Shown here: piece after piece, positions 2,092 to 64,000 of the stretch | How positions within the stretch are numbered: the stretch's first letter is position 1 | Layout of the letters: every line of letters starts with the position of its first letter | Source of the DNA: Fibrobacterales bacterium | Lineage (GTDB): Bacteria; Fibrobacterota; Fibrobacteria; Fibrobacterales; CADBQJ01 | Direction of reading: 5' to 3' | DNA: 64,000 bases | Assembly (NCBI GenBank): GCA_017650365.1 | Contig: JAGCEZ010000084.1 | Location: forward strand, 38,202-102,201 | Position numbers and translations under genes: made by a program | The notes under the pieces: generated by a model | The model's input: the letters and a program-made list of their open reading frames with translations, nothing else | Databases searched by the model: none | Told to the model about the DNA's origin: nothing

Positions 2092-3072
2092 CTATTTGCC
2101 CGCGCCTTCCCAATAGAGACTGGTCGAGACGTCGCCCACGCGGACGGCCAGGAAGCCCGGCGCGAAGGCAGACAGATCCAGCCAGCGCTCGCCCGGAAGG
2201 AGCGGCGACCGGCGGAGGATTTTGCCGTCCACGGAACTCACCTCCAGCATGCCCGCCTTGGCGATGTCCATTTTCAGCATCGAGCCGATTCGGGAGAACC
2301 TCGTCGTCCCCGCGACGCGCGGAGCGGAATCCACGGAAGCGTCGCCCTCCTTCGGGAACGGCCGCACGTTCACCGAACCCGCCGTGTCGCGCAACGCCTG
2401 CAGGTCCATGCAAACGCCATTCCGCCGCAGCACCGAATCCTTGTGGCAAAGCAGCACCGAATCGCCAGATTCGACATAGGTCCATTCAATATCGGCGGCA
2501 TAGCAAATCGAATCGCAATAAAAGCGAACCAAATCTCCCTTTTCCTGAGGAACTTTCACGTACTGCCCGTACCGCCCCGGCGTAGCCAAAGAATCGTAGG
2601 CGTATTTCCCAAAAAAGAAACCTGCCAAGGTATCCTCGCGCACCATCAACGAGTTCTTGAAAACTTCAATGGGAAGCACCGAAAAAACGCGATCCGTTCC
2701 ATTACAAACGCTTAGCCATGAAGAATGTACCTGCACGCCAAGATGTTCTCGCATATAGTCCACGATGATTGCCGAATCGCAGACTGTCATCAGCGTATCG
2801 TCAATCATTCCGATGATGTCTGTTTCGTATTCACCGCGCAATAGCAAATCCGAGACAGCCAACGTGTCAAAGCTGCAATAGCGAACGAATCTTCCGTCGA
2901 GGAACTCGAACCCCCGGCGAATGACATACTCTCCCGGGACATAATCGATATAGTCCGAAATGCCAGGCCGTCCCCAACTGCAAAATGTGAGCGGCGGGTC
3001 CGTGTTCGCATCGGCTTGGTTCACAAACGCGAACAACGCGAACAACGTGACGAAAATCGACGACTTTTTCAT
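2092..3072 (-). CDS. Secreted hypothetical protein with several Cys and a C-terminal sorting-like domain
   Basis: Signal peptide MKKSSIFVTLFALFAFVNQADA. The C-terminal ~70 aa (LEVSSVDGKILRR...LAPGF-like) resemble T9SS-type tails. The ATG overlaps the upstream stop (ATGA). Confidence 0.7.
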   Translation of the reverse strand: MKKSSIFVTLFALFAFVNQADANTDPPLTFCSWGRPGISDYIDYVPGEYVIRRGFEFLDGRFVRYCSFDTLAVSDLLLRGEYETDIIGMIDDTLMTVCDSAIIVDYMREHLGVQVHSSWLSVCNGTDRVFSVLPIEVFKNSLMVREDTLAGFFFGKYAYDSLATPGRYGQYVKVPQEKGDLVRFYCDSICYAADIEWTYVESGDSVLLCHKDSVLRRNGVCMDLQALRDTAGSVNVRPFPKEGDASVDSAPRVAGTTRFSRIGSMLKMDIAKAGMLEVSSVDGKILRRSPLLPGERWLDLSAFAPGFLAVRVGDVSTSLYWEGAGK

Positions 3073-6000
3073 TGCACACCCCCCATCGCCCACCATTCCG
3101 GAGCAACGCCGTGGACAAGATTTCCGTTTCCATCCGTGACGACCACGGAATCAGTTTCGACGAATGTCACGGACTTCGGATTCGACCAGTCGTCCAGGAC
3201 GTTCAGCGTTTCGTAGTTCGTTCCTCTTAAATGTAGCTGATTCTCCACCCCCTCGGGCATGATCGTGCCCGGTGCGAGATTGGCGGCCAACGGCATCCGC
3301 AACTCGTAGCGCCCCTCGCCATGGTCCACGATCTGAGGATCGAAATCCGGAGTGTAGTAGTCCAGCAGATAGGGCGTTGCCTCGGGCATCGTGAAGAAAT
3401 AGTGCAACGTCGCGCCTTCAAGCGGCGTTTCGCCGACGTTCTCCACCTTGAAGCTCAACACGGAAATCTGCGGATGGCCGAAATGGTGGTCTCGCACCGA
3501 CACCTTCAATTTCGGCAGAACAGGATCGGTCGCCGAAGTATCGCCGTTTTCGACCTCGCCGAGGACCGCGAAGTGGAACAGCGAGCTTTCCCCCATGAAC
3601 TCGTCGGGTTCCGCTTTCCTGGTCGCCCCGCCCTCGATGCCGACCCAATGCGCCTCCGGAGGCAGACTGTCGACGACGACCTCCACGCGGAACGGTCCGC
3701 TGGTCTTGTAGCCGCTCCACTGGAGGACATACCTGCCGTCGCCCGCATAATCATCGCCATTCACGCCGTCATCGCGCAGAAGGACCGTGTCGCACCTCGA
3801 TTCCGGCCGGTAAATGTCGCAGATCTCGGCTCGCGGCGAAACACCCGCCAGCAGTTCGGCGGCTCCGATTTCATAATGCAGCAGCAACGTCTCGCCAGGC
3901 AGAAGATTGGCCCTCCCCGGCGGAGCGTATAGTCTGCTCAACGCCGTTGTATTCCCGGACGCCAAGACGGTGTTTTTTCCGGCCCACCCCAAACTAGTGA
4001 ACTGTCGCGCCAAAGCCGCCTGCCGTTGCACAAGATCGGCGCAACTCGCGGTATCCATCTTGGCGAACCACAGTGACGAATCATTTCCCAATCCGTAGGA
4101 AGAAGTCGACACTTGGACAATATGGGAATGATTCTGATCAATCCCGTAGCTGAGCCAGAACCCAAAATCGTCGACGTTTCCGCCGATTTGATGAATTCCC
4201 ACCCATGCCGCCGAGCATTCTTCGAGCATCTTTGCGGACAACTGCGGCACAGCGGTCGTTCCCGCGAAAAACAGCCGCGTCCCAGTATTTGTCCCAGTAA
4301 CCCTCCAAGTCCTTAAGCCCAACACGTTGGAGAGGAACATGACGAGGTTATCCGGTTCGGTTTCCGGTCTGTCAACGATATCGTAGGCGGAGGAACCTAT
4401 CGACATGTAGATGAGCCGGGAGCCTTGGAACGTCTCCGGAAGTTGTCCTGCGGAATCCAGGAAATTCTCCACGTGCAGTCTGATTCCGGCATTTTCCATC
4501 TCCGCGCCGTAGATCTCCTGCCACGACACGAATCCCATTGCATGCAGATGCCCGCTCGTCAAAAACACCAAGTGTTTTCTTTCCGTTGCCGGACGATTTT
4601 TCAGCACGTCTATGCCATAAGTGCCGAGATCGAGATCCATGAAATCGCACGGCCGGAAAAGTTCTTGGCTCTCGCAATCGTTTCCTTCGAACTTCAGGTT
4701 TCCAAGCACGGCCAAGATGGAATCGGCGACGTCCGTAGCGGGGCCGATTGGAACGCTCACATGGTTGTTTCCTCTCGACGCCACGGCTTCCAGCCCGATG
4801 TTGATTCCGGGGACGTTCTTCGCGAACAGCGTGGCCACTTCCAAGGCGCGAATCATCTTCTGTTGCACTTCCTCGGACGCCCACTTGGACAGGTCTACGA
4901 GGAAAAGAACCGTTTTGGCGAACGAGAGCGACGAAGTGTCCGCGTTCCAAAGCGACCAATCGAGTTCAAGGAAAGCCCTCATGATGTCGGCGGATGTCGA
5001 GTCCATCTTCACGTAGCGATTGCCACGCGTGTCGAAGTCATTCGCGGTCGGCGCGACGGACGCAAGTTCCGGCCATCTGTAATCCGGCTTGGAAATTTTA
5101 CCCCATGCCGACTCGGCCAGTTCGTATCTCCGTTTCACCTTCACTCCACCATATTCGCCGTAGAAAGTCCGCGGAGTGCAATGGCCAATCGCCGAGGCAT
5201 TCGCCCCCTCCTCGCAATGCATGTAGTCCGTGGAAAGATTCGCATAACGCATGGCGCCCGCGTCGCCGAAAAGGGTCACCCATTGATGGTACATCAAAGA
5301 CGGCGCCTCCGACATGGCCCGGTCAAGGACTTTGGCCGCGGAATCAATGTTGTCAAATGCATTCCACGCCTCTCTTAAAATTGTCACATTCGGATCGTTC
5401 AGTCTCCATTCGCTTCCCATGACCGGCGTGCTGATAGGCTTGTCGGGATCGACGAGCAAATTGCGAAAACGCTCCGGATTGACAATCGTATAGCCGTCTT
5501 CGAATGTGTATTCATCTCCTAGACCAAGCGTGTAATGACCCCACTCGTGGGCCAGCGTGGCCGCGATAGCGGTTGGTGTGAACAGCTTGTTGCCATCGTA
5601 TCTATCGCGATGGACAAGCAGAATAGCGCCACCTGTGCCGTCTGCATTTTTCCAATCGTTTGTGCCCGCAGAAGAATTGCCGCCAAGTCTTCCATATCCG
5701 TCCGGCGTGGAACAGCTTCCAAGCAGGCCGCATCCGTGATTGCTCGCCCACAGCACATCCACGTATGCGTTATCCACGAAATCCCTCACAAAATGGACTT
5801 TGCCGAGAAGATGCTTGCCGTTGGTCGCCTCGTACAGGTAATCGGCGAACTTGCGGAACGTCTCTTCGATGTAAATCTGGTAGCAGACGCCGGTGGGATG
5901 CCAGGAAACGTCCAATTCGCGCCCCCTTTCGAGCTGCGAATTGCATGTGTACGCCATCGCCGGTCTGGCGATTTCCGGGATGCTGTTTGGAGAACCCAGT

Positions 6001-6167
6001 CCGTCCACGTCGGCCGAGTCGATGCGCACGAGGATGTCGAACACCCGCACAGAGTCGCCTGTAATCGGGTGAATGACCATATCATCCCGCTGGAACGGAT
6101 TTTGCGCCGCATGAACGTACGCAAACAGAAAGAACAAAAAGAGGATGAGCCCGAAACGATTTTTCAT
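3069..6167 (-). CDS. Secreted CLCA-like zinc metalloprotease: CLCA_N-like + vWA-like + choice-of-anchor-X-like + C-terminal CBM3-like domain
   Basis: Signal peptide; FRKFADYLYEATNGKHLLGKVHF; HEWGHYTLGLGDEY; TVLFLVDLS; LLRDDGVNGDDYAGDGRY; FKVENVGETPLEGATLHYFFT...DDWSN...GNLVHGVAP. Confidence 0.78.
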   Translation of the reverse strand: MKNRFGLILFLFFLFAYVHAAQNPFQRDDMVIHPITGDSVRVFDILVRIDSADVDGLGSPNSIPEIARPAMAYTCNSQLERGRELDVSWHPTGVCYQIYIEETFRKFADYLYEATNGKHLLGKVHFVRDFVDNAYVDVLWASNHGCGLLGSCSTPDGYGRLGGNSSAGTNDWKNADGTGGAILLVHRDRYDGNKLFTPTAIAATLAHEWGHYTLGLGDEYTFEDGYTIVNPERFRNLLVDPDKPISTPVMGSEWRLNDPNVTILREAWNAFDNIDSAAKVLDRAMSEAPSLMYHQWVTLFGDAGAMRYANLSTDYMHCEEGANASAIGHCTPRTFYGEYGGVKVKRRYELAESAWGKISKPDYRWPELASVAPTANDFDTRGNRYVKMDSTSADIMRAFLELDWSLWNADTSSLSFAKTVLFLVDLSKWASEEVQQKMIRALEVATLFAKNVPGINIGLEAVASRGNNHVSVPIGPATDVADSILAVLGNLKFEGNDCESQELFRPCDFMDLDLGTYGIDVLKNRPATERKHLVFLTSGHLHAMGFVSWQEIYGAEMENAGIRLHVENFLDSAGQLPETFQGSRLIYMSIGSSAYDIVDRPETEPDNLVMFLSNVLGLRTWRVTGTNTGTRLFFAGTTAVPQLSAKMLEECSAAWVGIHQIGGNVDDFGFWLSYGIDQNHSHIVQVSTSSYGLGNDSSLWFAKMDTASCADLVQRQAALARQFTSLGWAGKNTVLASGNTTALSRLYAPPGRANLLPGETLLLHYEIGAAELLAGVSPRAEICDIYRPESRCDTVLLRDDGVNGDDYAGDGRYVLQWSGYKTSGPFRVEVVVDSLPPEAHWVGIEGGATRKAEPDEFMGESSLFHFAVLGEVENGDTSATDPVLPKLKVSVRDHHFGHPQISVLSFKVENVGETPLEGATLHYFFTMPEATPYLLDYYTPDFDPQIVDHGEGRYELRMPLAANLAPGTIMPEGVENQLHLRGTNYETLNVLDDWSNPKSVTFVETDSVVVTDGNGNLVHGVAPEWWAMGGVQ

Positions 6168-6176
6168 AGCGGCGCG

Positions 6177-6206
6177 ATTGTAAAAAAAAAAACGCAAAGA
6201 CGTCAA
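6177..6206 (-). promoter_or_regulatory. Putative sigma70 promoter TTGACG-N18-TACAAT with a T11 homopolymer in the spacer
   Basis: On the minus strand: TTGACG at 6206-6201, T11 at 6192-6182, TACAAT at 6182-6177, ATG at 6167. Confidence 0.55.
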
Positions 6207-6227: not shown

Positions 6228-6263
6228 AAAAAAAGAAGAGGAGAGCGGCGCTCTCCTCTTTCG
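6228..6263. terminator. Hairpin terminator of the chitinase gene; copy 2 of the 28-bp direct repeat (6236-6263)
   Basis: AAGAGGAGAGC-GGC-GCTCTCCTCTT, with an A-tract that forms the U-tail on the minus strand. Confidence 0.8.
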
Positions 6264-6280: not shown

Positions 6281-7495
6281 TTATTGCGCGGCGGCGGGCG
6301 CTTCAGCTGCGGGCGCTTCCGGAGCGGGAGCCTCGGTCGCGGACGCGGCTTCCGGTGCGGGCGTTTCCGCAGGAGCGGCTTCCTGCGCGGGCGCGACTTC
6401 CGGAGCGGGAGCTTCGGCAGCGGGCGCGGGTTCCGCGGCGGCTTCAGGAGCCGCGGGAGCGGGAGCCTCTTCGGCCGCGGGAACGTCCGCGCAGTTGGCG
6501 CGTTCCTTCGCGGCGTCGAACTCGGTGCGCAGGACGTTCAGCAGGGAACGGTCCGACTTGGCGTCCAGGTCCTGGCCGACGTGCCAGATCATCAGGCCGC
6601 GGTAGCAGTTCGAAACCGTGTAGGAGACCTTGCGGCGGACCGAGGTGATGCCGTTGAAGTTGTAGCCGCCGATTTCGTTCGCGTCGGGCGCGGGCGCGAA
6701 CCGTTCCGACACGTCCGCCCACGAGAGCCAGTCGCCCCAGTTGGCGTTGCTGCGCGCGTAGAAGGGAATCCCGAAGACGAGCTTGCTCTTGGGCGCGTAG
6801 TCGTCCCAGGCGTCGAGGAATTCCAGCAGCGAATCGGGCGCGTGCGGTTCGGGAACCGGCACGTTCTCCGGCGCCCAGCCCCAGTCGTACGACATGATCA
6901 TCAGCAGGTCCATCGCCTTGAAGAAGCGCGGGTCGAACTCCGAGGGCTTGTGGCCCAGGCCGATGGCCGAGGTGAGGAGGCGGTCGCCGATGGCGGCCTT
7001 GAGCTCTTCGGCGAGCGTGGCGTAGTTCGCCATCTCCTCGGGCTTGGGGTATTCCCAGTCCACGTCGAACCCGTCGAAGCCGTTGTCGTCGAGGAACTTC
7101 TTCACGTTGGCGACGAACTTCGCGCGCGTCTCGGGCGAGGCGACCACGGCGGAGAACCCGCCCGAGCGGCCCCAGCCGCCGATGCTGACCAGCGCCTTGA
7201 CGCCGGCGGCGTGGGCGGCCTTCACCAGCTGCGGATAGTCCTTGGTGACGGAGGTGTCGACGAGCGAACCGTCGTCGTTCACCTGGAGGCTGAAGGCGAC
7301 GACGTGGGTCAGTTTCGAGAGCTGTTCGGGAGTCGGGACGCCTTCGGGCGCGTAGCCGAGGAGAACCAGGCCGGTGTCCGGGGCCGCGGGAGCGGGGGCG
7401 GGCGCGGCCGAGTCCGCGGGCTTCGGATTGCCCGCGCACGAAACCAGGAGCAGCGAGACCAGAGAACCGGCAAACAGCGTTTTCGTCATTCGCAT
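6281..7495 (-). CDS. GH18 chitinase-like lipoprotein with Ala/Pro/Glu-rich C-terminal tail
   Basis: Lipobox LLLVSC; ALVSIGGWG; intact catalytic DGFDVDWEYP (DxxDxDxE); MSYD; APAAE-like repeats. Start at 7495 or 7489. Confidence 0.88.
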   Translation of the reverse strand: MRMTKTLFAGSLVSLLLVSCAGNPKPADSAAPAPAPAAPDTGLVLLGYAPEGVPTPEQLSKLTHVVAFSLQVNDDGSLVDTSVTKDYPQLVKAAHAAGVKALVSIGGWGRSGGFSAVVASPETRAKFVANVKKFLDDNGFDGFDVDWEYPKPEEMANYATLAEELKAAIGDRLLTSAIGLGHKPSEFDPRFFKAMDLLMIMSYDWGWAPENVPVPEPHAPDSLLEFLDAWDDYAPKSKLVFGIPFYARSNANWGDWLSWADVSERFAPAPDANEIGGYNFNGITSVRRKVSYTVSNCYRGLMIWHVGQDLDAKSDRSLLNVLRTEFDAAKERANCADVPAAEEAPAPAAPEAAAEPAPAAEAPAPEVAPAQEAAPAETPAPEAASATEAPAPEAPAAEAPAAAQ

Positions 7496-38071: not shown

Positions 38072-39379
38072 ATGGAAACGCCGCTCGCCGAAATCCGGAA
38101 TCTCCCGCAGCTGAAAGGCCGGACCGTCCGCCTGCGCGGATGGGTCTGGAACCGCCGCGGGAGCGGCAGGATCCGCTTCGCGCAGCTGCGCGACGGAACG
38201 GGGTTCGCACAGCTCGTCGCGGGCGAAGAGGACCTCGACGCGGAATCGTTCGAACTGCTGAAGCGCCTCTCCCAGGAATCGCTCGTCGAGGCCGAGGGGA
38301 CCGTCGCGGAGAACGGACGCGAAGCGCTCGGCGTGGAACTCCGCCTCTCCGCCCTCCGCCAGCTCTCCGGCTCCGAGGACTACCCGATCACGCACAAGGA
38401 GCACGGCACCGACTTCCTGATGGACCGGCGCCACCTCTGGCTCCGCTCGCCGCGCCAGCGCGCGATCCTCGCGATCCGCGACCGGATGGAGCGTTCGATC
38501 CACGCCTACTTCCACGAACAGGGCTTCCTCCGCGTGGACGCGCCGATCTTCACCGACAACGCGTGCGAAGGGACGACCACGCTCTTCTCCGCGGAGTACT
38601 TCGGCTCCCCCGCCTACCTCTCGCAGAGCGGACAGCTCTACATGGAGGCCGCCGCGGCCGCCGTCGGCAAGGCCTACTGCTTCGGCCCCACGTTCCGCGC
38701 TGAGAACTCCAACACCCGCCGGCACCTCACCGAGTTCTGGATGGTCGAGCCCGAAGCGGCGTTCATGGAGCTGCCCGAGGACATGGCCCTCGGCGAAGGG
38801 CTGATCAAGCGGATTGTCGCCGACGTCCTGGGCGAATGCGGGCCCGAACTGGCGCTGCTGGGCCGCGACCTCGCCCCGCTCCGCGCCACCGCCGGATGTG
38901 CCTCGTTCCCGCGCCTCGCCTACGACGACGCCGTGGAAGTCCTGAAGAAGAACGGCGCCCCCGACTTCCGGTGGGGCGACGACTTCGGCGGCCCGCACGA
39001 GACCATCATCGCGCAGCAGTACTCCACGCCCGTGATCGTGCACCGCTACCCCTGCGCCTGCAAGGCCTTCTACATGAAGAAGGACCCGGAGGACGCGCGG
39101 CTCTCGCTCAGCATGGACATCCTCGCGCCCGAGGGCTTCGGCGAGATCGTCGGCGGCGGACAGCGCGAAACCGACCTCGAAACCCTGCTGGAGGGGTTCG
39201 CGAAGCACGGCATTGCCCCCTCCACGCTCGATTGGTATCTTGATCTCCGCAAGTACGGAACCTTCCCGCACGCCGGCTTCGGCCTCGGGCTGGAACGGAC
39301 GCTCGCCTGGGTCTGCGGCCTGCCGCACGTCCGCGAGACCGTCCCCTTCCCCCGCCTCCCCAACCGGCTGCACCCCTAA
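38072..39379 (+). CDS. asnS: Asparagine--tRNA ligase
   Basis: LRDGTG, HGTDFL..RRHLWLR, ACEGTTTLF, LSQSGQLY, FRAENSNTRRHLTEFWM, PHAGFGLGLER. Confidence 0.96.
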   Translation: METPLAEIRNLPQLKGRTVRLRGWVWNRRGSGRIRFAQLRDGTGFAQLVAGEEDLDAESFELLKRLSQESLVEAEGTVAENGREALGVELRLSALRQLSGSEDYPITHKEHGTDFLMDRRHLWLRSPRQRAILAIRDRMERSIHAYFHEQGFLRVDAPIFTDNACEGTTTLFSAEYFGSPAYLSQSGQLYMEAAAAAVGKAYCFGPTFRAENSNTRRHLTEFWMVEPEAAFMELPEDMALGEGLIKRIVADVLGECGPELALLGRDLAPLRATAGCASFPRLAYDDAVEVLKKNGAPDFRWGDDFGGPHETIIAQQYSTPVIVHRYPCACKAFYMKKDPEDARLSLSMDILAPEGFGEIVGGGQRETDLETLLEGFAKHGIAPSTLDWYLDLRKYGTFPHAGFGLGLERTLAWVCGLPHVRETVPFPRLPNRLHP

Positions 39380-55983: not shown

Positions 55984-56709
55984 CTACACATCCGGCATAG
56001 CTTGGCAAATTTTGCCGTTAAGCAACTTGCCATTTGCAGCTTTGGAACGTTTAACGCCATCAAAGCCCCACGCGCCCCATTGCTTGAAAAAGAAGGCCGA
56101 CTTGTATCTTGCCGCCTGTTTCTGGATGCTCTCGACCCAGGCTTTCTGCATCGGCCTCGCCTTGGGACCGCTTTCGCCACCCACAATCACCCAATGGATG
56201 TCTTTGAGATTCAGCCTACCCAAATCGCTTAGCAACGGTTCGCAAGACAAGAAGCGGACCCGGGCCTTGATTCGCCGCAGGACATCGATGCGCTCTTTGC
56301 GAGCTGCGCTTTCAACCGTCACGCCGATCCAAACATTATCGGGAACTTTCCGGGTTACGAAATACCGTTCCATCCGTTCGGCACGTTTGGTGAGAATCTG
56401 GAAACGGTGGTTCTCGGCATTCCGAATGGTGTTGAAAACCTTGTCGACAAAGGCAAACGGAACCTTTTCGTTGAACAGGTCGCTCATAGAGCACACGAAT
56501 ATATTGCTCGGCGATTTCCAATGAAGCGGTTCTTCCAAAGACTCCTCATGCAAGGCCACGGAAAAGCCATTCTTGTATTTCTCCAGCCCCATGCTTTGCA
56601 GGCGCCGCGACATCATCGCCGCATAGCAGTTGGCGCAACCTTCTGACATCCGGTCGCAACCCGTAACCGGATTCCACGTCTGGTCAGTCCATTCGATCTT
56701 TGTCTTCAT
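55984..56709 (-). CDS. DUF5131 (phage Gp37/Gp68) family protein with three-Cys motif
   Basis: IEWTDQTWNPVTGCDRMSEGCANCYA (Cx6Cx2C), FVCSMSDLF, FQILTKR, FLSCEPLL, WVIVGGESG, FFFKQWG. Confidence 0.92.
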   Translation of the reverse strand: MKTKIEWTDQTWNPVTGCDRMSEGCANCYAAMMSRRLQSMGLEKYKNGFSVALHEESLEEPLHWKSPSNIFVCSMSDLFNEKVPFAFVDKVFNTIRNAENHRFQILTKRAERMERYFVTRKVPDNVWIGVTVESAARKERIDVLRRIKARVRFLSCEPLLSDLGRLNLKDIHWVIVGGESGPKARPMQKAWVESIQKQAARYKSAFFFKQWGAWGFDGVKRSKAANGKLLNGKICQAMPDV

Positions 56710-57809
56710 TTTACCAGCTCAATCGCGACTTTTGCGTTCTTTCCGTCGCTCAAGTAAAACGTATTCTTCCTAATTCTCGTGTCGGCGTTATATGCTCTAA
56801 TCCGGATTAGGTCTTGTTCGGCAAAAAACTTCAGCACGTCCGTTCCGTGGCGCGGAAGAGAGCCGTTCTCATAGCAAAAATCACGGATATCGACATTCGT
56901 TTTTGGTCCATCTTCCAAGAACTCCCTCATCTTGATTTTCAAAGAATCGCTGAAAAACTCCTGTAGAAACGATGTTTGTCCGACGTTGCATTTGACAAAG
57001 CCAGCGCCTTCGTCCTCGTCGATTTCCCACTTTGTTTCAACGAATTTCTCCAGCCCTTTGCGATTGCTCGAGCAATAAATCAAGCAATTATGTCCACGGC
57101 CGGCATCATCCTGGATGATGAAGCTGTCGACGAATACACCCAACTCTTTGCGGAGCCTTTCAAGGATGTTTCTAGCGAAGTCGACATCGTTCTCAATCAC
57201 AGAAACATCTGGCACAAGAATGAAATCGTCAAGGAATGTTCGAATCGCATTAATCATTCTGCCCTTGAATCTGTATATGAAGGATACAGGCAAGAACAGT
57301 AGCACTTCGGTATCGCCGTCTTTTAGGATTTCCTTCATATCTGCCAATCGAATGCCACTATATCCAAAAGGGTCGATGAAGAAGAATCGCTTGAAGTAGT
57401 TATGGGTCTTGTGTTTGCTAAGAATTTGTGGCAACAAGTCCGCGTAGTCTTTGTTTTGGACGTCCGTCTCCACCCAATTGATCTTCTGGATTCTATGGTT
57501 GTCAACGAACGCTTTTAGCTTCCGATGATTTTCCGGATCACTTTCGTTAAAACAGATCTTTACCTGCAACCCTTCCAAATATGTTTGAGCCAAGTAGTCC
57601 AATAATATCATCGGGCTACCCGGATTCCCACGCTCATCTTTTCCGGGACCAGCGAACAAGTCGGCGATATAGACGGTGTCCTTTTTGTTCCTGTTCCACG
57701 ATTGCTGATAAGCTTTGCTCAATACCTTAAGATACCTGGCGATATACGCCCTATAGACGCCAAGCTTAGCCTTGGTCGAATCATTGAACTCATCGAAGAA
57801 GTCGGACAT
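56706..57809 (-). CDS. Three-Cys-motif partner protein (TcmP-like, methyltransferase-like fold)
   Basis: STKAKLGVYRAYI, YIADLFAGPG...GSP, FFFIDPFGYS; stop overlaps the DUF5131 start; SD-like GGAG upstream of the ATG at 57809. Confidence 0.85.
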   Translation of the reverse strand: MSDFFDEFNDSTKAKLGVYRAYIARYLKVLSKAYQQSWNRNKKDTVYIADLFAGPGKDERGNPGSPMILLDYLAQTYLEGLQVKICFNESDPENHRKLKAFVDNHRIQKINWVETDVQNKDYADLLPQILSKHKTHNYFKRFFFIDPFGYSGIRLADMKEILKDGDTEVLLFLPVSFIYRFKGRMINAIRTFLDDFILVPDVSVIENDVDFARNILERLRKELGVFVDSFIIQDDAGRGHNCLIYCSSNRKGLEKFVETKWEIDEDEGAGFVKCNVGQTSFLQEFFSDSLKIKMREFLEDGPKTNVDIRDFCYENGSLPRHGTDVLKFFAEQDLIRIRAYNADTRIRKNTFYLSDGKNAKVAIELVK

Positions 57810-57833
57810 ACACCCACTCCCACATTGCAATTG

Positions 57834-58574
57834 CTAATCCTTCACGCAACGGACGGAAGCGCCGTATTGCACATTTTCGGGGGAGCAGCAATCGGCCCAT
57901 CCAATGTTCCCTTGTAACAAATCGATGCCAAATGTCTCTGCTTGTGGTCCAATCATTCTAGCCCATTTTTGAATTTGAGGGTCATCCGGCACCCATTCTT
58001 CGGTGGCAGACCACCACACCGTGTACCCGCCAAGGTATGCGAATTTGCCGCCATCCCAATCGACGTGAATGCCGCCAGGAAGCGCGTTGAACCCAAAAGA
58101 ATTCTCCCCTACATAATTTTCCCAGCCATCTTTCGATGCCAGCGCCGTTGCCTCTGCCTCGTGATCTTCTTCCCAAATCTTGCAGCTGCCGTCCAAATAC
58201 TTCTCTTTGCACTCCTGCTTGGGCAAAGATTGCCGCACGAATTTCTCAAGCGCCATCCATTCTTCGGCCGTGGGTAGATGCCAGCCTTCGGGACAGCTCT
58301 CCTTCGCGACCTTCCAAATGTAAAGGCCGCCGTACTTTTCGCAATTCGCCAGCGAATCGCCGTAGCACCACTTTTCGCCAAGAGAGAGTTCCGACTTGCT
58401 CTCCAGGGGCTTGCCATAGTTCAAGTTCTGCGCCATCCAGACCTGGTCGCCAATCTTAACGGTCTTGTAGACTTGCCCGTCCCGCGGGTCCTTGAACGAG
58501 CCATCGCCGGAGTCATCGGAGCAACCAAGCGCCGCAACGACACAAAGCGCAATCAGCAGCAATTTCCCGTTCAT
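57834..58574 (-). CDS. FISUMP (Fibrobacter succinogenes major paralogous) domain lipoprotein
   Basis: Lipobox AALGC; FKDPRDGQVYKTVKIGDQVWMAQNLNY, GGLY.W, CPEGWHLPT, GFNALPGG, SVRCVKD. Confidence 0.9.
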   Translation of the reverse strand: MNGKLLLIALCVVAALGCSDDSGDGSFKDPRDGQVYKTVKIGDQVWMAQNLNYGKPLESKSELSLGEKWCYGDSLANCEKYGGLYIWKVAKESCPEGWHLPTAEEWMALEKFVRQSLPKQECKEKYLDGSCKIWEEDHEAEATALASKDGWENYVGENSFGFNALPGGIHVDWDGGKFAYLGGYTVWWSATEEWVPDDPQIQKWARMIGPQAETFGIDLLQGNIGWADCCSPENVQYGASVRCVKD

Positions 58575-59326
58575 TTCTTTTCCTTCTGTTCCTTCACGCA
58601 ACGGACGGAAGCTCCTATGCCTTTGAGCGCCAGCCAATATTCAAGTTTCCCGCTCTTGCGAAGTAGTACTCGGACATTTACGCTATCGCCACCAGCGCGG
58701 CTAGAAGTCCACCACATCCCGTGGCTGCCTTTTCCTAAAAACTCGACCTGGGTCCCAGCCACCCCTCTTATGCCTCCAGGAAGAAACCCGTATGCATTCT
58801 CCGATACAAATCCACCCCAAGCCTCGGTCTTCATCATTGTGCCCACTACGTCGAAGAACTCTTCCGTTCCTTCGAACGATGTCCAGCGGCGTCCATGGCA
58901 GAACATTCTTTCAATGGCAGCACTGTCGCCAAAAGACGAAGGCATTCCCGGACCACAGAGCGCTGTAACGCCCATCAAATACTCTTGTTCTAGATTGTTC
59001 CAATCTTTTTCAGTCGGCAGGCGCCATCCATCAGGACAACTTTGTTTGGCGGCCTCCCATGTATAGAGCCCTCCATATTTGCGGCAATTTTTCAGATCGT
59101 CATCATAACAGTATTTCTGCCCTCTCCCCAATTTAAGGCGCTCTCCCTCCACCGGCGTTCCATAGTTCAAGTTTTGTTCCATCCAAACGAGGTTTGAGAA
59201 AGGATGGAGAGTTGAGATGCTGTAAATCTGGCCATCGCGGGAATCCTTGAGTGTTTCAGGACCATCTTGGGCCAAGACAGCCGTAGCGATGACCATAAGC
59301 GCAATCAGTGCGAGTTTCTTGTTCAT
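58571..59326 (-). CDS. FISUMP domain secreted protein
   Basis: Signal peptide; LKDSRDGQIY, WMEQNLNY, GGLYTWEAAKQSCPDGWRLPT, SVRCVKE. Confidence 0.9.
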   Translation of the reverse strand: MNKKLALIALMVIATAVLAQDGPETLKDSRDGQIYSISTLHPFSNLVWMEQNLNYGTPVEGERLKLGRGQKYCYDDDLKNCRKYGGLYTWEAAKQSCPDGWRLPTEKDWNNLEQEYLMGVTALCGPGMPSSFGDSAAIERMFCHGRRWTSFEGTEEFFDVVGTMMKTEAWGGFVSENAYGFLPGGIRGVAGTQVEFLGKGSHGMWWTSSRAGGDSVNVRVLLRKSGKLEYWLALKGIGASVRCVKEQKEKK

Positions 59327-59343
59327 CTTTTTCCCCTTCGGTC

Positions 59344-59679
59344 TCAATATCCCGAGTAGCGGCAATCGTAACGGCCCTTGACGTAGGCGTTATAGAAACG
59401 CCCCTTCGAAGACGCCTGGAGCCACGAACTGAAGACCCGTTCCGGGACGCCGCAGTAGTGATAATAGGTGCCGTTCAACGAAACCAGCAGATACCGCGCA
59501 TCGTCCTGGTAGCAGATACGGTCCACGAACGAACTGCTAACCCAAGAGCATCGGAACTCGTCCAAATCAACGACGCCGCGATACTTCACATAGACCGATT
59601 CCGCGCGCGCAAGAACCGGCAGAAGCGCCAGGCCAAGCACAATGAAGGGCAAGAACTTGCGATTGCGTTTCAGAGACAT
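59344..59679 (-). CDS. KTSC-domain protein with N-terminal signal peptide
   Basis: SSFVDRICY...LLVSLNGTYYHYCGVPERVFSSWLQASSKGRFYNAYVKGRY. Confidence 0.8.
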   Translation of the reverse strand: MSLKRNRKFLPFIVLGLALLPVLARAESVYVKYRGVVDLDEFRCSWVSSSFVDRICYQDDARYLLVSLNGTYYHYCGVPERVFSSWLQASSKGRFYNAYVKGRYDCRYSGY

Positions 59680-59682
59680 GGT

Positions 59683-60300
59683 TTAGAACTTTCGATCATT
59701 CTCAGTGAGGCATATTCCTTCAAAGGAATATGTTTCAACATCCCAATCTTCTTGGATTTTCATTTCTCCAGTATAACGATTGAGCCGCAACCGCGCCTTA
59801 TTGTGGTCAGGGCCGCCATTCCACGCATGAAACAAAATCGAATTCACAGAAGAATTGCGATCTTCCCAATGATACTCCGGTTTGAGCGTAACATGATCCC
59901 ATCGATCCAGGTCTTCCCTTTGCTTAACCGTCTCTAGGTGCAATTTGCTTGCATTAAAAGCCCGAATATCAGCACGAATTGACGTGGCCTTTTTTTGCTG
60001 AACAACGACAAGAAACGATTTTGCGCCCCCGTCTTGGGAATGACCTTGGCAATACAAATGCGTGACGGGGTGCTCTTCGAGCAGATCTATAAGGATGGGC
60101 AAAAGAAAGTAGGCAGTAATTCCTGCTACAGCAATACCGAAAATAATGGGCAATCCAAGACCAATAGTCTTCAACACCGAGACGACCGGCATACACACAC
60201 GACGGTCATTGCCGGTCGGCGCTACAGCGGCGGAAGTACGACGCATTCTCGCTCTGCGAAAATCCGGCGTTGCACGCTCTTTTTCCCGCTCTTGATCCAT
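59683..60300 (-). CDS. Hypothetical single-pass membrane protein
   Basis: Strong SD (GGAGGGGAGAG) before the ATG at 60300; one TM segment (LGLPIIFGIAVAGITAYFLLPILI). Confidence 0.65.
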   Translation of the reverse strand: MDQEREKERATPDFRRARMRRTSAAVAPTGNDRRVCMPVVSVLKTIGLGLPIIFGIAVAGITAYFLLPILIDLLEEHPVTHLYCQGHSQDGGAKSFLVVVQQKKATSIRADIRAFNASKLHLETVKQREDLDRWDHVTLKPEYHWEDRNSSVNSILFHAWNGGPDHNKARLRLNRYTGEMKIQEDWDVETYSFEGICLTENDRKF

Positions 60301-60311
60301 CTCTCCCCTCC

Positions 60312-60389
60312 CTAGAACTTCAGTTTCGGCAGCGACTTGACGATTTGGGCGTACCCCGAAAATTCAGCTTTCTTTTTCGCCTTCTTCAT
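60312..60389 (-). CDS. Small basic 25-aa ORF MKKAKKKAEFSGYAQIVKSLPKLKF
   Basis: SD GGAGGT 8-9 nt upstream of the ATG; the stop is followed directly by the next gene's SD. Confidence 0.45.
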   Translation of the reverse strand: MKKAKKKAEFSGYAQIVKSLPKLKF

Positions 60390-60430
60390 CGCAATCTAAC
60401 CTCCGTCCCAGAAATATATACCGAGCAAAG

Positions 60431-60458
60431 CAGGAACCCATCGACAGGAACCCATCGA
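60431..60458. repeat. Perfect 14-bp tandem repeat in the divergent intergenic region
   Basis: CAGGAACCCATCGA x2. Confidence 0.7.
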
Positions 60459-60700
60459 ACTCGCCGCAGGCTGTTAATTCGCCCATAGACCCGCCTGCTG
60501 GAGGCAAAGGACCTCGCAGCCAACCAGCCGAAGGGCTCTTACGAGGAATTGCGCCTCAAAGTGCCCATTTTCGTCGATTTTGCGCAAAAATGCCGTAGAA
60601 ATGGCACATAAACGGACGGCCGCAATAGTTAGATTGGCTGAAGAGGTCTATCCCCGAGATACGACCGATTGTGGATTATTGCCTGGCATCTGGGAGAAGG

Positions 60701-62314
60701 ATGATGGCGAGGAAAAAAGCCGCAGAAGAAACGATCAATTTGGACGCGATTCTCTTCAAGTGCCGCGACATCTTGCGCCAGGCGCGCAATTCGGGTTCGT
60801 TCTTCGAAAAGCGCGACATGATGCTTACACTCGTCTTTCTGCGTTTCATCGGGGAAAAGTACGAGAACGGCGTCGAGAACCTCCGCAAGGACCTCATTGC
60901 GCAGGGGCTCGACCCGAACGACGAACAGATTGTCTCCGCATTCTTCGACGACGCCACGTTTACCGACGGCACGTACAATCTGCCGCCCGAAGCGCGCTGG
61001 GAGACAATCATCAACACGCCGGCTCCTCGCTTGAACGCCGCGCTTGACATGGCGCTGCACAGCATCGCGGCGAGCAACAAACAGCTCAAGGGCTGTTTTA
61101 TCGAGGGAACTTTCACTCAACGCAACCTTGCGCCAAACGACATCAAGAAGCTCGTCGACGAAATCAACAAAATCAGCTACCGGGCTTTCGGCGAGGAAAG
61201 GGACCTGATTGGCCGGGTCTACGAGTATTTCCTCAAGGAGTTCGCCGTCAACGCGACCAAGGAAGAGGGAGAATTCTACACACCGCATGATGTGGTTCAG
61301 CTGATTGCGGCGATAATCGAACCTTTCGACGGCACGCTCTACGACCCTTGCTGCGGCTCGGGCGGCATGTTCATCCAGAGCGCCGACCTGGTGAAGTCAA
61401 AGCAGGGCGACATCAGCAGGATTAACGTCTACGGTCAGGAGAAAGACGCAATGACCTGGCGTCTGGCGAAGATGAATCTTGCCCTGCGCGGCATCAGTCA
61501 TCACCTTGGCGAGACATATGATTCGACGTTTGTCAATGACCAGCACAAGGGAGTTTACTTCGACTACATCATGGCGAATCCGCCGTTCAACCTGAAGGGC
61601 TGGTACAACGAGAACCTGCGCCATGACGCGCGGTGGGCCGACTACGGAACGCCGCCGGAAAGCAATGCCAACTACGCCTGGATTCTCCACATGCTTTCGC
61701 ATCTGAAGCCGACGAGCGGCGTGGCGGCTTTCCTGCTTGGCAATGGCGCTCTTGATGATGAAGACGCCGTTGCCATCCGAAAGAAGCTGATACAGAACGA
61801 CAAAGTGGAAGCAATTATCATCCTGCCGCGCGAACTGTTCATCACGACGGATACCGGCGCGACAATCTGGATTTTGAACCAGAACAAAAAAGGTGGCAAA
61901 GACCATGGCAGAGAACTACGCGATCGCAAGCATGAAATACTCTTCGTGGATTTGCGCACCTGGACTGAAAATCCAATCAAAAAAGAAGGCAACAGCAAGA
62001 AGAGATTTCAGCTGATCACTGAACAAATCGAACGAGTCGCTGCCATCTACCACAAGTGGCAAGCGAAAGGCACGAATGGCGCAGATTACGCCGTGCCGGA
62101 ACTCTACCGCAGCGTCAACATCTCCGAAATCGAAGAAAACGGCTGGAGCCTCGTCCCCAGCAAGTATATCGAATTCATCGACCACGACCTGGAAATCGAC
62201 TTCCCTGCGGAAATGAAACGAATCCGCAAGGAGATGCAGGAAGTCCTGAAACAGGAAAAGAAGTCGCAGAAGATGCTCGAAGACGCCTTCAAGGGTATCG
62301 GTTATGGAATATAG
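60701..62314 (+). CDS. hsdM: Type I restriction-modification methyltransferase subunit
   Basis: HsdM N-terminal domain, GEFYTP, YDPCCGSGGMF, YGQE, NPPFN catalytic motif. Confidence 0.95.
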   Translation: MMARKKAAEETINLDAILFKCRDILRQARNSGSFFEKRDMMLTLVFLRFIGEKYENGVENLRKDLIAQGLDPNDEQIVSAFFDDATFTDGTYNLPPEARWETIINTPAPRLNAALDMALHSIAASNKQLKGCFIEGTFTQRNLAPNDIKKLVDEINKISYRAFGEERDLIGRVYEYFLKEFAVNATKEEGEFYTPHDVVQLIAAIIEPFDGTLYDPCCGSGGMFIQSADLVKSKQGDISRINVYGQEKDAMTWRLAKMNLALRGISHHLGETYDSTFVNDQHKGVYFDYIMANPPFNLKGWYNENLRHDARWADYGTPPESNANYAWILHMLSHLKPTSGVAAFLLGNGALDDEDAVAIRKKLIQNDKVEAIIILPRELFITTDTGATIWILNQNKKGGKDHGRELRDRKHEILFVDLRTWTENPIKKEGNSKKRFQLITEQIERVAAIYHKWQAKGTNGADYAVPELYRSVNISEIEENGWSLVPSKYIEFIDHDLEIDFPAEMKRIRKEMQEVLKQEKKSQKMLEDAFKGIGYGI

Positions 62315-63428
62315 GCTTGGCGAACTCATCCATCATGAAGATGAGCGCAATGAACGCGGCGCGTTTTCGTTAAGCGATGTCCGAGGCATATCCATCAAGA
62401 AAGAATTCATAGAGACGAAAGCGGATATGGAGGGCGTCTCATTGCGTCCGTATATTCTTGTTCGCCCCGATAATTTCGCCTATGTCACCGTCACTTCGCG
62501 AAATGGCGAGAAAATAACGATTGCGCACAATGACACGCAAAACACCTACATCGTGTCCTCGTCTTATGAGGTATTCAGCGTCGCACGAAATGATTTGCTA
62601 AACCCATGGTATCTCTTCATGTATTTCAACAGGCCGGAATTCGACCGGTATGCGAGATTCCATTCGTTTGGCTCTGCCAGAGAAACATTCGACTGGCAAG
62701 ACATGTGCGACATTGATATCGAACTTCCTCCGCTTTCGGTCCAGCAGAAATATGTCGACATTTATTTGGGCTTGGTTGCCAACCAGAAGAGCTATGAGCG
62801 AGGGCTGGAGGACTTGAAGTTCGTCTGCGACGGATATATCGAAGATCTGCGCCGCAAAATGCCGTGCGAGAAGATTGGGCCATATATTGAGCCCAAAGAA
62901 GAGCGAAATTCAGATCTCAGAATCAAACTTGCTCAAGGCATCACCAACGAGAAACGATTTGATGCGCCCAAGCAGGTCGCTGAAGCGGCCGAAAATGCGA
63001 AGATTGTTCGCACAGGACAATTCGCTTACAATCAAGCGACAACAAGGAATGGTGAAAAAATTTCCATCGCATTCCGTGACGGAGAAGATTGTGTTGTCTC
63101 TTCCGCTTACCAAGTGTTTGAAATCAAGGACAAGAAAAGACTTCTGCCCGAGTATTTGATGATGTGGTATAAGCGCCCGGAATTTGACCGCTATGTGCGA
63201 TACATGTCAAAAGGTAGCGCGCATGAATTTTTCAAATACTCGGATATGGAAAACGTCAGCATCCCGATCCCGGGGATTGGTGTACAGAGAGCTATTGCTG
63301 ACATCTATAACGCCTGCACGGTTCGCGAGCGCATCAACAAACAGCTCAAGGCGCAAATCAAGGACGTTTGCCCGGTTTTGATTAAAGGCTCGTTGGAGGA
63401 AGGCGGCAATCCGGAATGCGTTCAATGA
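62304..63428 (+). CDS. hsdS: Type I restriction-modification specificity subunit
   Basis: Two homologous TRD halves (RNGEKI..A, VSS.Y.VF, RPEFDRY.R...GS) each followed by LPP/IP..VQ helices; overlaps the hsdM end. Confidence 0.92.
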   Translation: MEYRLGELIHHEDERNERGAFSLSDVRGISIKKEFIETKADMEGVSLRPYILVRPDNFAYVTVTSRNGEKITIAHNDTQNTYIVSSSYEVFSVARNDLLNPWYLFMYFNRPEFDRYARFHSFGSARETFDWQDMCDIDIELPPLSVQQKYVDIYLGLVANQKSYERGLEDLKFVCDGYIEDLRRKMPCEKIGPYIEPKEERNSDLRIKLAQGITNEKRFDAPKQVAEAAENAKIVRTGQFAYNQATTRNGEKISIAFRDGEDCVVSSAYQVFEIKDKKRLLPEYLMMWYKRPEFDRYVRYMSKGSAHEFFKYSDMENVSIPIPGIGVQRAIADIYNACTVRERINKQLKAQIKDVCPVLIKGSLEEGGNPECVQ

Positions 63429-64000
63429 AGTCATATAGCCATTTCATGAATAAGATAAGCTCAGAGGATATTTTCGAAGGGCTGTTAGGACATGGTCTGT
63501 TTTCAGAGAAACTGCCACCGATTTTTTCCTCAGAATCTTTCTACAAATATTGTCGCGAAAATCCAAAGGCCTTTCCCGAAGACCGTGCGTGTCCATATGT
63601 TTTCTACGAAAGCATGCGTAATACAAATGTTCCCCGCCAATTAGGCATCCCGAACCCAATGGCATACCAACAGCTATGCCGCTGCATCTCGGCAAATTGG
63701 AGCAAAATACAGAACCACTTCGAAAAAGCAACTTGCAATGACACACATATTGTTAGTCGCATTCATCTGCGGAAAATGAACAACACAAAAATTCTGTACC
63801 GAATGAACTATGACAACTGGAAGACCGACGGCAATCCTATTCAGGATTTGCTTATAGGGCATAGATATGTGGTTCATGCCGATATTGCGACATGCTTTCC
63901 CAGCATATACACCCACACCATTCCATGGGCTCTAGTTGGAAAGGAAACGGCGAAGAAAAACACGCATTGCCGCGGGAAAAACAAAACGTGGTATAACGAA
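63425..64000 (+). CDS. Reverse transcriptase of the Abi/UG (defence-associated) class, N-terminal 192 aa (runs off window)
   Basis: Manual translation from the ATG overlapping the hsdS stop: MKSYSHFMNK...GLFSEKLPPIF...PRQLGIPNPMAY...SRIHLRK...YVVHADIATCFPSIYTHTIPWALVGK. No stop to the window end. Confidence 0.85.
   Translation, partial: MKSYSHFMNKISSEDIFEGLLGHGLFSEKLPPIFSSESFYKYCRENPKAFPEDRACPYVFYESMRNTNVPRQLGIPNPMAYQQLCRCISANWSKIQNHFEKATCNDTHIVSRIHLRKMNNTKILYRMNYDNWKTDGNPIQDLLIGHRYVVHADIATCFPSIYTHTIPWALVGKETAKKNTHCRGKNKTWYNE

Follow-up and report, generated by a model that had tools for sequence, protein, structure and literature searches.

A predicted secreted CLCA-like metalloprotease with a C-terminal CBM3 module in a Fibrobacterales bacterium

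Introduction

What does the gene at positions 3069-6167 of a 64,000-nucleotide stretch of Fibrobacterales DNA encode, and is its product, as an earlier note made from the sequence had proposed, a CLCA-type metalloprotease with a cellulose-binding tail? The stretch, hereafter the window, covers positions 38,202 to 102,201 of contig JAGCEZ010000084.1 (assembly GCA_017650365.1, forward strand). Judged from its sequence, the gene product is a secreted CLCA-like zinc protease with an intact active site, which additionally carries a von Willebrand factor A (VWA) domain that has lost its MIDAS (metal ion-dependent adhesion site), a module of the inhibitory-domain type and a family-3 carbohydrate-binding module (CBM3). 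CLCA-like metzincins as a kind are already known in bacteria; the CBM3-tailed variant is the new part.

Animal CLCA1 has only recently been defined structurally, by cryo-electron microscopy, as founder of a 'eukaryotic' metzincin family with unusual autoinhibition, and the same work names the igalysins (M64) as the family closest to these 'CLCAsins' (bioRxiv 10.1101/2025.10.18.683246). Among metzincins, the bacterial CLCA-like lineage stands closest to animal CLCA1 and the M64 igalysins. The patchy occurrence of CLCA homologues in bacteria, which the earlier note also mentions, was described by Lenart et al. 2013 for Shewanella, Chloroflexi and others (PMC3650047). Our scan of species genomes found the metallohydrolase (MH) domain in the same groups, and the only full-length relative in that scan came from one Fibrobacteres metagenome-assembled genome (MAG).

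Results and Discussion

Gene and domain architecture

The region 3069-6167 holds a single long open reading frame (ORF) of 1032 codons plus stop, running on the minus strand from an ATG at 6167 to the stop codon at 3069-3071. The gene proposed in the earlier note is thus real; its strand, left unstated there, is the minus strand, and a plus-strand gene is ruled out by a translation that consists of stops only. All strings quoted for this region were recovered from the translation: the signal peptide, FRKFADYLYEATNGKHLLGKVHF (aa 104-126), HEWGHYTLGLGDEY, TVLFLVDLS, LLRDDGVNGDDYAGDGRY and a C-terminal module of about 150 aa. Unless stated otherwise, the features below lie on the minus strand. 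The protein starts with a Sec signal peptide (aa 1-21, 6105-6167) read from the sequence as MKNRFGLILFLFFLFAYVHA followed by AQ; it lacks a lipobox cysteine, and AYAHAAQNPFQR within this region is kept across the family in the homologue alignment. Full-length homologues, seven in number and 95-29% identical, occur in ruminant-gut metagenomes, one of them in a MAG labelled Fibrobacterales. Down to 33% identity, these homologues keep their catalytic and C-terminal motifs unchanged, which, with the choice-of-anchor-X score above its cut-off given below, sets the features apart from chance resemblance. The family is confined to Fibrobacterota-type MAGs.

From N- to C-terminus, the domains are the MH, the VWA, a presumably beta-rich domain of variable sequence, a choice-of-anchor-X module that corresponds to the inhibitory domain (ID) of CLCA, and CBM3. 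This is the order of CLCA1 with its C-terminal FnIII-like domain replaced by CBM3. Compared with the full CLCA series of MH, VWA, beta-sheet-rich (BSR) domain, ID and FnIII-like domain, the MH, the VWA and the ID-type motif are colinear, and the C-terminus is a CBM3. Literature searches returned no paper on a CLCA-type protease with a carbohydrate-binding module, nor on a CBM3 protease in Fibrobacter; the earlier note likewise knew of no characterized protein with this architecture. The layout itself, however, is not unique and recurs in about ten other metagenomic clusters. Clusters delimited at 50% identity in which the combination was found, with either a single CBM3 or two, number at least eight beyond the window protein's own (P0015, P0016, P0017, P0020, P0025, P0030, P0033, P0052). 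All clusters with this architecture are unnamed or annotated as 'hypothetical'.

In a Pfam search with the window protein alone, only VWA_2 was matched (E 0.067), and the corresponding Protein Data Bank (PDB) search matched nothing but M64 IgA proteases, over the length of the motif. Since single-sequence searches are silent on CLCA and CBM_3, both assignments were tested through profiles of relatives. The comparison by hidden Markov models (HMMs), Foldseek and structure prediction that had been suggested earlier thus found VWA and choice-of-anchor X directly and CLCA and CBM3 by way of relatives' profiles, while the MH fold stayed unmatched by Foldseek.

Metallohydrolase domain

The MH domain (aa 22-415, 4923-6104) was delineated by a family HMM, by Pfam CLCA matches in relatives and by an AlphaFold model; it is CLCA-like or igalysin-like and contains family-specific insertions. 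Within it lies the zinc motif HEWGHYTLGLGDEY (aa 207-220, 5508-5549) with H207, E208, H211, D218, E219 and Y220, which stays the same throughout the family and across 72 relatives in the alignment. Its form, HEWGHxxxGxxDEY, corresponds to the extended HEXXHXXXGXXDEY of CLCA or CLCAsin metallohydrolases, a signature common to CLCAsins and igalysins (10.1101/2025.10.18.683246). In CLCA1, the active-site helix bears H156, E157 and H160; D167 serves as third ligand with Y169 nearby, and E168 binds a second zinc whose site is completed by C187, C250 and H255. CLCA1 further has a distant Met-turn and no prodomain, and until autocleavage its active site is blocked by a loop from the C-terminal inhibitory domain (10.1101/2025.10.18.683246). 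In the window family, E219, C318 and C330 are invariant. A candidate Met-turn is found in PSLM (aa 289-292, 5292-5303). The family shows no variation at P289, L291 or M292, and PSLM aligns with the PSIMNxQW consensus of distant relatives.

An HMM built from the family only matches 106 retrieved proteins at about positions 70-230, with E-values down to 1e-20, and most of these proteins are ordered protease, VWA, choice-of-anchor X. When N-terminal segments of 23 relatives were searched, Pfam CLCA was matched by 12 (E ≤ 0.01; best E 2.2e-6) and Peptidase_M64 by four. For Pfam CLCA, P0010 reaches 25.3 bits vs a gathering score of 25.6. In relatives, the stretch from the VWA up to and including choice-of-anchor X is matched by the full-length CLCA model TIGR00868, best in P0034 (E 1.2e-32) and also in the CBM3-tailed P0015 (E 2.3e-17); the top score among relatives is 112.7 bits vs a cut-off of 900.85. 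Beyond the zinc motif, the alignments are colinear over a VFD-strand, FADxxYEATNGxHxLGxV, HEWGHYxxGLxDEY, PSxM, NxST, SxW and ELxxVAP. The assignment as a CLCA-type metalloprotease is therefore supported by the relatives' Pfam matches and the shared zinc motif, but the likeness is remote and, for the window protein, below curated thresholds.

An AlphaFold model of aa 22-625, computed from a 72-row alignment, reached a predicted local distance difference test (pLDDT) score of 83.6 and a predicted template modeling (pTM) score of 0.82; a full-length model from eight sequences (mean pLDDT 40.8) was not used. In the MH part, with pLDDT mostly above 80, the model displays a beta-sheet, FRKFADYLYEATNGKH as a backing helix, an edge strand, and TLAHEWGHY as the active-site helix. 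This predicted secondary structure fits a zincin.

The nearest known systems help to place the protein. Like animal CLCA1 (PF08434, TIGR00868, MEROPS M87), it carries HEXXHXXXGXXDEY without an N-terminal prodomain, and its MH, VWA, beta-rich and inhibitory-type domain with LLDDGxGxDxxAxDGxY are colinear with those of CLCA1. Unlike CLCA1, to which its match is remote, it has large family-specific MH insertions, a degenerate MIDAS and a CBM3 in place of the FnIII-like domain, and its gene is bacterial and lies in an operon with a partner. Bacterial CLCA-like proteins, for example those of Shewanella, Rhodobacterales and Chloroflexota (PMC3650047), share the MH (E 1e-14 to 1e-20), the VWA, choice-of-anchor X and the patchy distribution. 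Their tails are of the FN3, FG-GAP, PPC or sortase-target type and their MIDAS still reads DxSGS, whereas the window family ends in CBM3 and has lost the MIDAS. The M64 igalysins, represented by the Thomasclavelia ramosa IgA protease (9ekk) and Bacova_00663 (3p1v), have the same motif (HExxHxxxGLGDEY), are secreted without a prodomain, and are the only solved structures found by sequence for the N-terminal region. The likeness to them is nevertheless limited to about 30 residues around the motif, with different accessory domains: the alignment to 9ekk spans about 30 residues (E 0.3 with the single sequence, 8e-4 with the profile), and PF09471 (M64) has no match to the window protein.

VWA, middle and choice-of-anchor-X domains

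The vWA-like strand pointed out earlier, TVLFLVDLS (aa 419-427), belongs to a VWA domain at aa 416-625 (4293-4922), the region of the weak VWA_2 match. Foldseek of the AlphaFold model retrieved VWA structures, including Rpn10 and integrin I-domains, with an E-value of 2e-7 and target-normalized TM scores of 0.6-0.7 (maximum 0.70), so that the predicted structure confirms a Rossmann-like VWA fold. The fold thus stands, but its metal site is degenerate: relative to the MIDAS pattern DxSxS...T...D, the window protein reads DLSKW in place of DxSxS and LTSG in place of LSDG, and the Thr is absent. A distant family member, P0008, retains DASGS and TDG at the MIDAS.

Behind the VWA lies a variable middle domain (aa 626-760, 3888-4292), placed by its colinearity with the CLCA1 series MH-VWA-BSR-ID at the position of the BSR domain. 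By this analogy we infer that it is the BSR counterpart. Its homologues are found only within the family, at identities of 8-97%.

The following module (aa 761-880, 3528-3887) is of the choice-of-anchor-X or CLCA inhibitory-domain type, as indicated by NF041940, hhalign and TIGR00868. Its core, LLRDDGVNGDDYAGDGRY (nt 3672-3779), is an LLDDG-type motif, and the string itself is located at aa 796-813. The NCBIfam model choice_anch_X (NF041940) scores 27 bits vs a cut-off of 25 at aa 797-832. With hhalign, the comparison with the CLCA-like P0010 gave 99.2% probability, with only the choice-of-anchor-X/PPC region aligned, and positions 638-688 of TIGR00868 match the choice-of-anchor-X region of family member P0006. 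The LLDDG-type repeat recognized in the earlier note as a CLCA feature hence equals, at the level of sequence models, choice-of-anchor X and corresponds to TIGR00868 positions 638-688.

CBM3 module

The C-terminal CBM3 module (aa 881-1032, 3072-3527) is the most conserved domain of the family, with identities of 60-98%, as compared with identities down to 20% for the VWA and 8% for the middle domain. In an exhaustive profile search over 1.8 billion representative proteins, many proteins were found to share only the last 150 residues with the window protein, often as tandem pairs. Several relatives match Pfam CBM_3 (PF00942) above threshold at the same place, among them P0039 (37.6 bits) and P0027 (30 bits), and both are reached by the family-only HMM. 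Profile A2, a 33-row alignment with the window domain as its first row, aligned over the full length of solved CBM3 modules, namely CBM3b of Cbh9A (3zqx, E 1.5e-20), the CBM3 of Bacillus subtilis Cel5A (2l8a, E 3.4e-17) and CBM3a of CipA (1nbc, E 3.4e-13). PF00942 is matched by 12 of the 33 members of this profile and has no direct match to the window's own domain (E ≤ 0.01). The closing module is accordingly CBM3-like by profile, as had been claimed, although a direct CBM_3 match is missing.

Compared with the family-3 modules 1nbc, 3zqx/2ylk and 2l8a, the window module conserves the YYFT, DYYTP, NDxS and G..P motifs; it differs in being part of a protease rather than of a glycoside hydrolase or scaffoldin, in having Tyr for a key Trp, and in being missed directly by the Pfam model. 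Aromatic and basic strip positions can be recognized in the alignment at Y937/Y938 and H979/R981, respectively, and the aromatic and basic strip residues are invariant in the family. Y985 aligns where the Cbh9A entries 2ylk and 3zqx differ (Asn vs Trp), the position which we take to decide cellulose binding in the Cbh9A CBM3b.

CBM3-like modules of the same subclade were also seen in giant frames of 3000-4000 aa in many larger (3-4 Mb) genomes of the same order, for example at G023:C4:18659-19081 and G037:C1:609018-609440. Use of the C-terminal domain as a general sorting tag of the genome is ruled out: its sole other match in the genome belongs to a second, partial copy of the gene.

Two-gene cassette and sequence variation

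The protease gene is followed by a putatively co-transcribed partner gene (2092-3072), whose 326-aa product carries a signal peptide and contains no known domain; the partner's start overlaps the protease stop by 4 nt. A scan located a promoter-like site, TTGACG-18 nt-TACAAT, at 6177-6206 (10/12 matches), with a T11 run in its spacer. On either side of the gene pair stands a 28-nt GC hairpin of repeat family D3: the upstream copy at 6236-6263 (96% identity) was also called as terminator of the preceding glycoside hydrolase family 18 (GH18) gene, and the downstream copy at 2040-2067 closes the cassette. The pairing of protease and partner is kept in three other loci (L001, L067, L076), and a distant version exists in L009. 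All 18 homologues of the partner lack a Pfam domain.

The cassette has a GC content of 56%, vs about 68% in its neighbors and 67% in the genome. On a relative's contig, homology stops exactly at the cassette borders. A second copy in the same assembly is split over two contig ends (C8:20553-21195 and C53:1-425). At that place a direct repeat, 41 nt long and of host sequence, flanks the copy; it may be a target duplication or else the signature of an empty site. No copy was found in a same-genus genome, and among 60 genomes of the same order the only matches were CBM3-like ones within giant ORFs. From these features we infer that the cassette is compositionally foreign and accessory.

The partner itself is strongly uneven in its conservation. 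Its C-terminal portion of about 130 aa is highly conserved (95% identical to the L001 copy), and the N-terminal two thirds are very variable; over its whole length it is 80% identical in a sample where the protease is 95% identical. The conserved C-terminus resembles a beta-rich sorting or binding tail, although no model matches it.

The promoter region differs between copies as well. The spacer run is T11 in the window (6183-6193), and T9-C-T both in the second copy (C8:20680-20692) and in L076 (108-120), which is another sample's copy of the window locus. As -35 hexamer, the window and L076 have TTGACG, the second copy TTGGCG. The differences in the spacer run are compatible with slipped-strand switching, without proving it.

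Relative to the 95%-identical allele (P0002/L076), the protease has 56 amino acid differences, mostly in three patches at aa 255-280, 317-356 and 501-524 (nt about 5328-5405, 5100-5219 and 4596-4667), with scattered differences elsewhere. In P0005, the MH, ID and CBM3 are shared with the window clade, and the VWA and middle domain with P0007. Taken together, the patches and the domain sharing of P0005 make the gene look like a recombination mosaic.

Proposed function and alternatives

We hypothesize that the protein is a secreted zinc endopeptidase of the CLCA lineage, tethered by its CBM3 to insoluble beta-1,4-glycan and cutting proteins there, a reading that the sequence comparisons render moderately probable. 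The CBM3 would hold the enzyme on insoluble beta-1,4-glycan surfaces, either of crystalline cellulose or of chitin, and the protease would cleave proteins embedded in or bound to them. As its nearest characterized relatives, CLCA1 and the igalysins, act on or near glycosylated regions, the substrates are likely to be glycosylated, linker-rich proteins, such as fungal or plant wall glycoproteins or the fiber-bound enzymes and adhesins of other microbes. As in CLCA1, the inhibitory-type domain may cover the active site up to the moment of autoproteolysis, and the VWA, with its MIDAS lost, probably serves as a scaffold. The gene would be expressed together with the secreted 326-aa partner.

Several results weigh against this reading. 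At E ≤ 1, neither the Pfam CLCA model (PF08434) nor TIGR00868 nor CBM_3 matches the window protein, which remains below threshold for all three, so that all three links are transitive. Foldseek of the aa 22-625 model listed only VWA folds in both libraries and no zincin; as VWA matches filled the lists, the MH fold is left without an independent structural match. The ratio of nonsynonymous to synonymous substitution rates (dN/dS) between the two alleles is about 0.5, with differences clustered in patches, and is uninformative outside them. In the CBM3, the equivalent of W118 is Tyr, not Trp, and its subclade is joined mostly to proteases and giant adhesin-like proteins (partners being peptidase C25, M36, FG-GAP/ASPIC, SpvB and PKD) and not to glycoside hydrolases; with Tyr for Trp and such partners, cellulose binding is not assured. 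Furthermore, the genome (2.08 Mb) contains 17 GH18 matches vs one GH5 and one GH9. This content points to chitin or N-glycan foraging over cellulolysis and makes chitin or glycoproteins as likely targets as cellulose. The choice among plant cell walls, chitin and mucus that the earlier note had offered is thereby tilted toward chitin or glycoproteins.

The same observations on the CBM3 would also suit a protease as described whose CBM3-like module binds a ligand other than cellulose or chitin, for instance a surface glycan of the producer itself or some other protein, keeping the enzyme at the cell surface or in a complex. Some CBM3-like modules have sensing or structural roles. The partners of the subclade, up to ORFs of 3000-4000 aa, are not cellulases, the key planar-strip Trp is replaced, the genome is poor in cellulases, and the window protein has no other anchoring signal. 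The full-length profile match to cellulose-binding CBM3a/b structures (E 1e-13 to 1e-20) and the retained, family-wide invariant aromatic and basic strip residues argue otherwise, and we consider a ligand of this kind unlikely. Still less is to be said for a protein that is mainly an adhesin, with an MH domain kept for binding instead of catalysis, as in dead-site CLCA and ADAM members, and with VWA and CBM3 providing attachment. VWA, CBM and beta-sandwich domains are indeed typical of adhesins, and inactive CLCA members exist (PMC3650047). However, H207, E208, H211, D218, E219, Y220 and M292 are all intact and invariant, and the site that has decayed is the adhesion site of the VWA (MIDAS), not the protease site, which leaves this explanation very improbable.

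The features of the cassette raise a further alternative, namely that it is a competition module in which the protease acts as effector against surface or fiber-bound proteins of bacterial or fungal competitors and the hypervariable partner is an inhibitor, an immunity protein or a targeting adaptor. Such a role would agree with a low-GC (56% vs 68%), repeat-flanked unit that occupies two loci in the genome, is absent from a same-genus genome and has other neighbors in a relative. The partner always follows with the 4-nt overlap, and its N-terminal two thirds vary while the protease stays 95% identical; the protease carries mosaic hypervariable patches, and the poly-T length in the promoter spacer differs between copies. 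Yet there is no similarity to known toxin/immunity or inhibitor families, no secretion-system genes adjoin the cassette, and the variability could just as well result from the pressure that phages or host immunity exert on a surface protein. We therefore rate this possibility as improbable, though less so than the adhesin. Its most elaborate form, equally doubtful in our estimate, would be a mobile, possibly phase-variable mosaic cassette that pairs a glycoprotein-preferring, surface-anchored protease with a cognate inhibitor/immunity or adaptor partner, and by which gut Fibrobacterota would strip competitors' or fungal proteins from fiber or chitin.

If such a mobile cassette existed, it would provide a bacterial counterpart of autoinhibited CLCA1 open to study outside animals; to our knowledge, no bacterial relative of CLCA1 has ever been characterized. 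As for the protein as such, the MH-VWA-BSR-ID core with its CBM3 tail could offer a convenient system in which to study catalysis and autoinhibition, and the family would add a data point on the spread of CLCA-type proteins between animals and bacteria. It would also exemplify a protease directed to the surface of an insoluble polysaccharide in the ruminant gut, an environment with intense competition for fiber and fungal walls, and an enzyme of this kind could be used in practice to free cellulose or chitin of proteins.

Other features of the window

The GH18 gene beside the cassette (6281-7495) encodes a lipoprotein with an LVSC lipobox, whose long C-terminal tail is repetitive and rich in Ala, Pro and Glu (repeat family D1, 6283-6480). 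It was considered as a functional partner of the protease and dropped, as relatives of the cassette have other neighbors. At the far end of the window, positions 56001-64000 have a GC content of about 50%, vs 68-70% across most of the window, and may represent another foreign segment.

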